Position numbers and translations under genes: made by a program. From NCBI RefSeq assembly GCF_044324875.1, contig NZ_CP172185.1: a stretch of 64,000 nucleotides of DNA. One strand, written 5' to 3'. Within the stretch, counting starts at the first letter, position 1. Every line of letters starts with the position of its first letter. This stretch comes from Escherichia coli (lineage in GTDB: Bacteria > Pseudomonadota > Gammaproteobacteria > Enterobacterales > Enterobacteriaceae). Shown here one piece after another: positions 53,550 through 55,973 of this stretch. The notes below the pieces were generated by a model. The model saw only the letters and a program-made list of their open reading frames with translations. It was not told where the DNA came from and made no database searches.

Positions 53550-55973
53550 TTACCCCTGAACCTTTTTTACTTCCGCACCAAGAATCTGCGCAATCAAACC
53601 TTCGGCTTTTTGTTCTAGGTTGATGATGTCGGTTGCGACCTCTTCTAAACTACGCAGCGGTTTATGACGGTAGAAATACTTATTGAAGCTGATTTCATAG
53701 CCAATTTTTACCGTATCTAGGTTTATCCATGCTTCATCGACATGAGGCTTCACTTCATCTAGGAAGTACTGGTAAATGCTTTGCTTTAATGGAACAGATT
53801 CTGTATCTCGCAGGTCTGAATTGGTCTCGTAAGTGATATACTCGCCTTTTTTACCGCCTTCTGCTGAAGGAACGGGGTAATAACCAAAATCTGGCAAGTC
53901 AGCGACTTCACACTCATAGCGCTCCAGCAGGTCGTTTAATTTATCACCCGTTAATTTAACTACCTTTTTAACCACTTTCTTGGCGGTTTCGTCATACCAG
54001 CTCACCGCGTGAAGAATGGCATTTTTCTCAGGTGCTGAAAGCTTAATAGCATGGGCTTTTAGCGATTTATCAACTTGGGTTTTAAAGCTATTGAAGTCAT
54101 CAAATTCAATGCTACCGATGTCAGCCATCAGCGTTTGTGCAGTTTCAAGCAATGCTTTTAGCGCCAGCCAGTGTTTCACATCAAGCAGTTTGGCCTTAGC
54201 CTTAGCATTGAGACTGATGTCGTTATCTTCACACCAAGAAAGAATGTCTTTCTCGATGGATTTTAAGAAGCTCTTTTTCTGATCTGACCCGTAGCCAGTT
54301 TTTTCGTAAACACGTTCGCCGTGCTCTGCGTACACGTACTCCATCACTTCACTAAGTTGCTTATCAAAACGCAGTGGGGCTATGGCATCTTGAGTAAACT
54401 TGGCTTTGCGGCGATCTGGGCGCTCGATAGTGACTTTGTAGTAGCCAAAGTCGTCATTACTAAAGACCTTACTGGCGATACCGATAGGATCATTGTTTGC
54501 ATCAAGTGCTCTTTCAACGTCCACACACGCGAGGTAAGTATCGGTGATTTCCGTGATGTGCTCAGGCGCAAATTCGCAGTTTTTGTTACCTAAGTTCTTA
54601 CGCAACTTACGGTATAGCAAGCTGGCATCAATCAGTTGCACCTTACCTTTACGTGCCTCAGGTTTATTGTTGCTCAACACCCAAATGTAAGTGGTAATGC
54701 CGGTGTTGTAGAACAGGTTATTTGGTAACTGAACGATGGCATCTAGCATGTCGTTTTCAATGATGAAGCGACGAATGTTACTTTCGCCACCGCCCGCATC
54801 ACCGGTAAAGAGCGATGAGCCGTTATGAACAGAAGCAATCCGGCTGCCTAATGGGCTTACGCTCGGATCTTTCATCTTGTTGACCATTTCCATTAAAAAG
54901 AGCAGCTGGCCATCACTTGAACGTGGCGTGGCATCCACCACTTCGAGATTTCCCCAATAGTCTTTCAGGCTAACCTTAAAACGTGGGTCAATCACGTCAC
55001 TACCGTCTTTAATATGCTTCTGTTCAGACGCCCAACTCTTACCGTATGGCGGGTTAGACAACATAAAGTCAAAGCGAGAAGCCGCAAACTCGTCGGTAGA
55101 CAAGGTTGAGCCTACCTTGATGTTCTCAGGGTTGTTACCTTTGATCATCATGTCCGATTTACAAATCGCGTAGGTCTCGTCATTGATCTCTTTGCCGTAA
55201 AGGTAAATATCTCGGCTGTCGTTCGGGTATTTCTCTTCAATGAAGTTTTGAGATTCAGTGAGCATACCACCGCTACCACACGCAGGGTCGTAAACGGTCA
55301 TGGTCAATGGTAGCTGCTCTTTCACTGGGTCAAAAACCAAGTGTGTCATCAGCTCAATCACTTCCCTAGGTGTAAAGTGCTCACCGGCTTCTTCGTTATT
55401 CTCCTCGTTGAACTTACGGATCAACTCTTCGAACACGTACCCCATACCCAGGTTAGTAAGGGCTGGCATCTTGTTGCCATCTGGGTCTTCGATCGTTTCA
55501 TGAGTTAAGTTGATGTAAGGGGAAACAAACTTTTCGACGACATCAAGAAGGACTTGCTTTGAGGCCATGTGACGAATTTGCGACTTGAGGTTAAAGCATT
55601 CAATGATTTCTTTAACATTATCGCTAAAGCCAAGCAGGTACTCTTCAAAGTTGGCGAGTAATATCTGTTGGTTATTCGTTGCGGTGTTGAACAGGGATTT
55701 CAGGGTCCATTTAGATGTATTGTAAAAAACATAACCACTAGCCGCCTTCAATGGTTCATCATCAAGCTCCGTGGCTTGCATCTCTTCTTTTTGGAACTTG
55801 ACCTCTTCAAGCACGGCTTCTTTGGTGGGTTCAAGTAACGTATCTAAACGTCGTAATACCACCATAGGTAAAATCACATCGCGGTACTTACCGCGAACGT
55901 ACACATCACGTAAACAGTCGTCGGCAATGTTCCAAATAAATGAGATGAGCTTGTTATGTACACTATGATCCAT
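53550..55973 (-). CDS. hsdM: Type I restriction-modification N6-adenine methyltransferase (HsdM), long form
   Basis: Start MDHSVHNKL… at ATG 55973; SAM-binding DPACGSGGML and catalytic NPPYG motifs; about 808 aa, with a C-terminal extension of roughly 300 aa beyond the methyltransferase core. Confidence 0.85.
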   Translation of the reverse strand: MDHSVHNKLISFIWNIADDCLRDVYVRGKYRDVILPMVVLRRLDTLLEPTKEAVLEEVKFQKEEMQATELDDEPLKAASGYVFYNTSKWTLKSLFNTATNNQQILLANFEEYLLGFSDNVKEIIECFNLKSQIRHMASKQVLLDVVEKFVSPYINLTHETIEDPDGNKMPALTNLGMGYVFEELIRKFNEENNEEAGEHFTPREVIELMTHLVFDPVKEQLPLTMTVYDPACGSGGMLTESQNFIEEKYPNDSRDIYLYGKEINDETYAICKSDMMIKGNNPENIKVGSTLSTDEFAASRFDFMLSNPPYGKSWASEQKHIKDGSDVIDPRFKVSLKDYWGNLEVVDATPRSSDGQLLFLMEMVNKMKDPSVSPLGSRIASVHNGSSLFTGDAGGGESNIRRFIIENDMLDAIVQLPNNLFYNTGITTYIWVLSNNKPEARKGKVQLIDASLLYRKLRKNLGNKNCEFAPEHITEITDTYLACVDVERALDANNDPIGIASKVFSNDDFGYYKVTIERPDRRKAKFTQDAIAPLRFDKQLSEVMEYVYAEHGERVYEKTGYGSDQKKSFLKSIEKDILSWCEDNDISLNAKAKAKLLDVKHWLALKALLETAQTLMADIGSIEFDDFNSFKTQVDKSLKAHAIKLSAPEKNAILHAVSWYDETAKKVVKKVVKLTGDKLNDLLERYECEVADLPDFGYYPVPSAEGGKKGEYITYETNSDLRDTESVPLKQSIYQYFLDEVKPHVDEAWINLDTVKIGYEISFNKYFYRHKPLRSLEEVATDIINLEQKAEGLIAQILGAEVKKVQG

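Follow-up and report, generated by a model that had tools for sequence, protein, structure and literature searches.

The window, meaning the whole 64,000-nucleotide stretch of Escherichia coli DNA that was analyzed, carries a set of Type I restriction-modification genes, and the hsdM among them lies within a low-GC island (0.40–0.47). Where the E. coli locus is intact, its operon consists, in this order, of hsdM (807 aa), hsdS (~440 aa), an embedded gene for a DUF4268 protein (387 aa; gene X below) and hsdR (1005 aa), with hsdM co-encoded with both hsdS and hsdR, whereas in the window hsdS is split by insertion sequence (IS) elements. The genes and elements of the locus are as follows:

45387..48404, minus strand: hsdR, 1005 aa (TIGR00348, E 2e-62, below the curated cut-off; PADLOC REase_I; RefSeq)
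48419..49582, minus strand: embedded gene X, 387 aa, DUF4268, PADLOC candidate PDC-S11 (RefSeq; PADLOC PDLC04913, E 4.5e-182)
49605..50912, minus strand: IS3-family insertion sequence, copy 1 (open reading frames identical to those of copy 2; breaks collinearity with the intact locus L002, whose HsdS is WP_000975823.1)
50913..51529, plus strand: 3' 617 bp of hsdS, oriented against the remainder of the operon (blastn against L002 14133–14749, opposite orientation)
51530..52832, plus strand: copy 2 of the IS3-family insertion sequence, facing the opposite way from copy 1 (list of open reading frames; blastn against L002)
52833..53543, minus strand: 5' part of hsdS, cut off by IS insertion (blastn against L002; open reading frame 52797–53543)
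53550..55973, minus strand: hsdM, 807 aa plus stop codon (list of open reading frames; E. coli RefSeq genomes contain an identical gene under the name "type I restriction-modification system subunit M")

The inverted 617-bp piece of hsdS sits between two identical, oppositely oriented copies of the IS3-family element. HsdS is needed for methylation and restriction alike (PMC11411939); because hsdS is broken and the methylase is left without its DNA-recognition subunit, the system has probably lost its activity in this strain, and the HsdM of the window is probably an inactive orphan. As for the start site, the minus-strand open reading frame ending at 53550 can be read as 819 codons from a TTG at 56009 or as 807 codons from an ATG at 55973. 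The identical gene in RefSeq E. coli is 2424 nt long and the N-termini of homologues match the ATG at 55973 (alignment A1); therefore, the hsdM coordinates of the earlier note are right, and its length of 808 is a count that includes the stop codon.

A Type I HsdM is expected to serve, within an M2S1 complex, in the m6A methylation of a bipartite target. The sequence features that define such a subunit are present in the N-terminal two-thirds of the protein, namely an HsdM N-terminal helical domain and a gamma-class N6-adenine methylase domain with an AdoMet motif (xDPxxGxGG) and an NPPY/F motif:

55527..55946, minus strand: HsdM_N helical domain, aa 10–149 (Pfam PF12161, E 7.6e-23)
54516..55445, minus strand: N6_Mtase, the N6-adenine methyltransferase catalytic domain, aa 177–486 (Pfam)
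55260..55289, minus strand: AdoMet-binding motif I, DPACGSGGML, aa 229–238 (translation; D229, G233, G235 and G236 invariant in A1)
55041..55055, minus strand: catalytic motif IV, NPPYG, aa 307–311 (translation; N307, P308, P309 and G311 invariant)

At the level of families, the protein belongs end to end to the PADLOC MTase_I model PDLC03029, of which positions 2–660 of 661 align with aa 2–798 (E 1.8e-268), while the C-terminal 327 aa taken alone align with positions 456–660. No family-level difference separates PDLC03029 from the window HsdM; the model holds 205 positions for ~300 C-terminal residues, which is consistent with the presence of variable insertions. Several other PADLOC MTase_I models are 800–1000 positions long and match the core only, and the existence of such long models indicates that long M subunits are common in Type I diversity. 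The NCBIfam hsdM equivalog TIGR00497 matches only aa 177–480, with a score of 106.4 bits against a cut-off of 242.75. Type I families are defined by subunit complementation (PMC3874165, PMC12707154), and M subunits of one family are closely similar in sequence. The score below the TIGR00497 cut-off, combined with an identity of ~20% to the M subunits of EcoKI and EcoR124I, places the protein outside families IA and IC. It is, in short, an ordinary and already annotated Type I M subunit.

Downstream of the catalytic domain lie ~320 residues (aa 487–807) for which no significant Pfam, NCBIfam or PDB match was obtained, the PDB having been searched by phmmer and by hmmsearch with the family profile; PDB sequence matches end at aa ~480–488 for the single protein and the family profile alike. 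The earlier note had described about 300 aa beyond the methyltransferase core, in a protein longer than a typical HsdM of 500–550 aa and with no recognizable motif in the added part, and all three observations hold: EcoKI M is 529 aa long (PMC12707154), HsdM chains in the PDB span 445–544 aa, and a Pfam scan of 148 aligned family members found no recognized domain in the C-terminal region of any of them. A weak match to DUF6650 in this region (E 0.35–1.8) was discarded. The lysine- and glutamate-rich composition also mentioned there is real but mild (20–22% K/E in the C-terminal region vs. 17% in the whole protein), and a low-complexity or disordered tail is ruled out by the composition and the pLDDT. 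Structure prediction, which had been proposed for this region, was carried out with AlphaFold2; on the 148-sequence alignment it returned a pLDDT of 94.4 and a pTM of 0.82 for aa 481–807, and the model of full-length HsdM has a pLDDT of 91.3 and a pTM of 0.83, the latter pTM implying a fixed packing of the domains in the model. The C-terminal module is thereby predicted with confidence to fold and to pack on the rest of HsdM. Its parts are listed below in the order of the protein:

54402..54515, minus strand: post-catalytic β-hairpin segment, aa 487–524, kept in long and short forms (F504, F509, G510, Y511, R518, P519, R521; alignments A1 and A2)
53988..54401, minus strand: insertion A, an all-helical lobe, aa 525–662 (gap in P0236 and P0269 in A1; eight predicted helices, pLDDT 95–98)
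54165..54365, minus strand: three-helix unit 1 of insertion A, aa 537–603, ending in ISLNAKAKAKLLDVKHW (hhalign self-alignment with unit 2)
53994..54161, minus strand: three-helix unit 2 of insertion A, aa 605–660, ending in IKLSAPEKNAILHAVSW (hhalign self-alignment)
53829..53987, minus strand: strand 668–673, insertion B (helices 676–696) and strand 711–715, aa 663–715 (gaps in A1; secondary structure of the model)
53649..53828, minus strand: conserved C-terminal core, aa 716–775, common to short relatives (columns of A1, A2 and A3 that are invariant or nearly so)
53553..53648, minus strand: terminal amphipathic helix, aa 776–798, and a short variable end; putative HsdS-docking helix (predicted helix; M–half-S fusions; PMC9613975)

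In the models, strands at 500–524 (those of the post-catalytic hairpin at 500–505, 510–517 and 521–524) are followed by eight helices at 528–656 (insertion A), strands at 658–673, helices at 676–696 (insertion B), strands at 711–728, a helix at 733–741, a strand at 749–759 and the 23-residue terminal helix at 776–798. The conserved C-terminal core is marked by the motifs RDxE (722–725), EVxPH (740–744), AW (748–749) and GYEISFNKYFY (758–768), and by R774.

The region is not a simple terminal extension, as had been supposed. The short forms P0236 (585 aa) and P0269 (573 aa), which are 47–48% identical to the window HsdM, retain aa 487–524 and ~716–807 and are devoid of aa ~525–715 (A1); in intermediates of 672 and 725 aa, parts of the same stretch are missing, insertion B being absent from the 725-aa relative P0140 (A1). 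Since the short forms keep the hairpin and the tail without the middle, the "extension" consists of a conserved tail and internal helical insertions, that is, two helical insertions nested in loops of a β-rich C-terminal core (aa 716–798, including the end helix of ~23 residues). P0236 and P0269 resemble the window HsdM in the catalytic core, the post-catalytic hairpin (ERP), RDxE, PHVPDAW, GYEIxFxKYFY and the terminal helix, and in being accompanied by homologous HsdS and HsdR and by a cargo slot as well; they differ from it in the missing aa ~525–715. In a short-M system, HsdR follows aa 38–997 of the window HsdR collinearly at 37% identity, and HsdS is also collinear. Lengths in the whole family comprise 573, 585, 672, 725 and 758–855 aa. 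Close homologues measure 807, 809, 814, 819, 824 and 829 aa, a series for which a 5-residue tandem repeat was considered and refuted, as the differences stem from independent loop indels at different sites.

No match to insertion A was obtained in Pfam or the PDB. With modest profile support, the insertion seems to have arisen by tandem duplication, the repeated unit being three helices and ~60 residues long. In an hhalign self-comparison of its profile, aa 537–603 align with aa 605–660 over 56 columns (E 9.4e-5, probability 59%), and both units end in I-x-L-[NS]-A-x-x-K-x-x-[LI]-L-x4-W, in which W602/W659 and K593/K650 are equivalent conserved positions. An origin of the insertion as a copy of another part of HsdM was rejected, because hhalign related it neither to the N-terminal or catalytic domain nor to the tail. 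Eleven basic positions are conserved in the insertions (R535, K538, K591, K593, K595, K639, K644, K650, K666, K670 and K673); the net charge of the insertion is −3 here, which is also the median over 133 relatives.

Among Type I methyltransferase subunits there is a widespread "long-form" subfamily, and the C-terminal third is its normal C-terminal module. With the C-terminal 327 residues as a query, 1109 proteins were retrieved from a 90%-clustered database, together with 2409 representatives at 50% identity; many of these matches are short and apparently partial, those named by the source are all DNA or SAM-dependent methyltransferases or Type I M proteins, and complete ones of 573–800 aa end with the module, longer ones being M–S fusions. 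Similarly, Foldseek returned 340 AFDB50 clusters, and among the 50 matches listed, 48 are named adenine DNA methylase or Type I M protein and 2 "Uncharacterized protein". When one genome per species was scanned with the pattern GYEI[SN]F[NT][KR][YH], the module was found to be encoded in at least 594 genomes, the best 80 of which belong to Gamma- and Alphaproteobacteria, Bacteroidota, Campylobacterota, Desulfobacterota, Cyanobacteria, Chloroflexota and Verrucomicrobiota and show strong conservation across phyla (44–70% identity). In the 56 loci among these best 80 that have a complete hsdM and a downstream hsdR, all from different species, HsdM measures 778–855 aa (median 788). The length that had been taken for unusual is accordingly standard for a large and known subfamily (PDLC03029 over aa 2–798; 778–855 aa in the 56 loci), the C-terminal domain of which is without characterization. 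Full-length homologues of 802–831 aa with 89–98% identity occur in Vibrio, Shewanella, Proteus, Providencia, Morganella, Klebsiella and Actinobacillus, and such identity across these genera indicates a mobile system. Within E. coli, hsdM is carried by 61 of 5426 complete genomes, and in 22 of the 61 it is located on plasmids. The names given to close homologues by their sources are generic.

On balance, it appears fairly probable that this family-standard module docks on HsdS through its terminal helix and presents its helical lobe as an accessory contact surface at the M–S junction, unlinked to gene X. The terminal helix (776–798) would be the counterpart of the canonical HsdM C-terminal tail and would dock on the coiled-coil conserved regions of HsdS to form M2S1. 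In PacII and the classical enzymes, the C-terminal tails and the S coiled coil form a four-helix bundle needed for assembly, and in PacII deletion of the tails abolishes assembly (PMC9613975). Judging from its position next to S, the terminal helix is probably equivalent to this tail, and the docking role is supported by the natural M–half-S fusions P0150, P0154 and P0180, in which no more than ~20 residues separate the end of the module from the start of the specificity half; a family-profile search of the PDB gave no profile link between the terminal helix and canonical C-terminal tails. The HsdR and HsdS of short-M systems are collinear with those of the window, so the lobe would be accessory rather than required by the partners. 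Our best guess, by analogy, is that it adds a further interface, either to DNA or to the recognition domains of HsdS. The eleven conserved basic positions offer a possible contact surface, but the insertion is not positively charged overall, which speaks little for DNA binding. It is also possible, albeit tentatively, that the duplicated three-helix lobe and the β-rich tail make up an undescribed functional domain of Type I enzymes, serving in DNA or recognition-domain contact, in partner contact or in the control of restriction vs. methylation.

A different role had been suggested by the earlier note, which tentatively linked the C-terminal region to gene X; more generally, the insertion could be a docking or sensing platform that couples embedded cargo defense proteins, whether X or others, to the Type I complex. 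In this family something usually fills the slot between hsdS and hsdR: from the stop of hsdM to the start of hsdR there are >2.6 kb in 40 of the 56 loci, 1.5–2.6 kb in 10 and ≤1.5 kb in 6. The content of the slot varies by locus, from the DUF4268 protein here (gene X, with a weak NucS-like N-terminus) to a SLFN_AlbA_2/HATPase_c_4 protein in L003 and DUF1016/YhcG in L006. Moreover, the whole T1RM+TgvAB cluster of V. cholerae is reported to protect 10- to 100-fold more strongly against several phages than tgvAB alone (PMC11411939). However, no homologue of X was found in any of the 80 long-HsdM loci from the best 80 of at least 594 genomes (tblastn, E < 1e-5); the six loci with the shortest distance have the full insertion and nothing but hsdS between hsdM and hsdR, and L011 likewise runs directly from hsdM through hsdS to hsdR with no cargo; embedded genes also occur in the short-HsdM loci L007 (a protein of 381 aa without relation to X) and L010 (a GmrSD_N protein); and one conserved domain is unlikely to recognize unrelated cargo proteins. 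This co-occurrence across long- and short-HsdM loci speaks against a tie between the insertion and gene X and largely refutes cargo docking as such, which is considered highly improbable. Cargo between hsdS and hsdR is a habit of the family, as described for the V. cholerae VPI-2 system (PMC11411939), and shows no correlation with the presence of the insertion.

The insertion may otherwise act on HsdR, either by recruiting the motor-nuclease or by governing the choice between methylation and restriction. The position of the module at the C-terminal end of HsdM, which is the assembly anchor in canonical enzymes (PMC9613975), its strong conservation across phyla and the high pTM, by which the module would be held in a fixed place on the M subunit in the model, are in keeping with such a regulatory element; yet the HsdR proteins of long- and short-HsdM systems agree in size and domain content and are collinear, with no compensating change in HsdR alongside the insertion, and this makes a coupling role quite unlikely. 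Somewhat less so, but still unlikely, is the proposal that the insertions decorate loops whose structure tolerates them and, apart from stabilizing the fold, have no specific function. The variation of size within the family, the independent 5-residue loop indels among close homologues and the mostly hydrophobic or glycine character of the best-conserved insertion residues would all fit mere decoration, but conservation of the insertion over large phylogenetic distances extends to lysines and acidic residues, and the long form predominates in the best 80 genome matches, a ranking that is biased by the long query. An accessory surface at the M–S junction, with the terminal helix on HsdS, hence remains the reading that we favor.

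For the window itself these results have little consequence, as its HsdM is an annotated M subunit that is found unchanged in many E. coli genomes and stands beside a broken hsdS. Structural knowledge of Type I enzymes has been built on M subunits of 445–545 aa, and a large share of natural M diversity carries 250–500 extra C-terminal residues that have never been described. The module ranges over hundreds of species and at least seven phyla; with no Pfam family or solved structure, an uncharacterized role, a presence in at least 594 species and a confident prediction, it is a reasonable target for domain definition and for structure determination on a long-form M2S1 or R2M2S1 complex. If the lobe were indeed a functional domain, its bearers would represent a structurally distinct class of Type I enzymes. 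In addition, the cargo slot between hsdS and hsdR is independent of the architecture of the M subunit.

Among known systems, the canonical HsdM structures compared were PacII M1/M2 (7VRU/7VS4), EcoR124I M (7BST), EcoKI M (2AR0/2Y7C), 3LKD and 3KHK, to which the window HsdM is 18–23% identical with at most 443 of 807 residues aligned. Canonical HsdM ends 45–65 residues past the catalytic domain, whereas the window HsdM continues for ~320 more, and its β-rich C-terminal core with two helical insertions has no match among solved structures. The Type IIB enzyme BsaXI (PDB 8W0P) bears a multi-helical "knob" after its methylase domain (PMC11997821), which the lobe resembles in position; no fold similarity of the lobe to the knob (residues 626–742) was detected, and the likeness to BsaXI accordingly stays an analogy. 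The Type I system of V. cholerae VPI-2 (VC1769–VC1765) shares with this family the order hsdM, hsdS, embedded genes and hsdR, but its cargo is the GmrSD-like TgvAB and that of the window a DUF4268 protein; for this V. cholerae system, both methylation and restriction have been shown experimentally (PMC11411939).

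Close homologues (89-98% identity) of the long-form HsdM, the 807-aa Type I methylase, vary in length from 802 to 831 aa. In the 14 aligned homologues, the differences come from indels that arose independently, mostly of 5 residues, spread over several surface loops of the catalytic domain and of the C-terminal module (the residues past it) alike; in homologues P0271-P0390, these sites align to aa ~252, 304, 543, 560, 700, 730, and 798. A tandem repeat as the source of the length differences was considered and is ruled out by the independence of the indels and their occurrence at different loops. 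Larger additions are found in other homologues: in P0150 (1021 aa), P0154, and P0180, the long-form HsdM is naturally fused to half an HsdS, comprising one recognition domain and the coiled coil, and P0261 (1148 aa) carries ~420 extra residues beyond the C-terminal module, for which PADLOC returned no match.

In the window, the hsdM stop codon (53550-53552) is followed after 6 nt by the hsdS start codon (53543), and the spacing is equally tight in intact loci; such an arrangement would allow M and S to be translationally coupled. Two identical copies of an IS3-family element, inverted with respect to each other, split the hsdS gene itself; their transposase looks IS629-like. The features concerned are as follows:

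52833-53543, hsdS piece
50913-51529, hsdS piece
49605-52832, region in which the two IS3-family copies split hsdS
48419-49582 (-), X, DUF4268 protein
56780-58302 (-) and 56232-56627, 58894-59699, IS3-family element and group II intron

Between the IS copies, the 3' 617 bp of hsdS run in the opposite direction to hsdM, X, and hsdR. A series of events that fits the junctions is one insertion inside hsdS and another at its 3' end, with subsequent recombination between the inverted copies. Separately, upstream of hsdM, a group II intron interrupts an IS3-family element; the reverse transcriptase/maturase ORF of this intron is split in the window (364 aa + 128 aa). In E. coli DLI.6n, this gene bears the annotation "internal stop", and in strain SCEC020022 it is unbroken (ltrA).

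X, embedded between hsdS and hsdR, corresponds to PDC-S11, which PADLOC lists as a candidate defence protein (E 4.5e-182), and its N-terminus weakly matches a NucS-like endonuclease (aa 25-101, E 2e-5). Downstream of hsdM, the hsdM-hsdR gap exceeds 2.6 kb in 40 of the 56 related loci (L014-L092; maximum 8.3 kb) drawn from the best 80 of at least 594 genome matches; hence, hsdS usually has at least one cargo gene beside it, and this cargo is variable. Among the loci inspected, some cargo proteins gave no match in a Pfam search, and the others were of the SLFN_AlbA_2/HATPase_c_4, DUF1016/YhcG, and GmrSD_N types.
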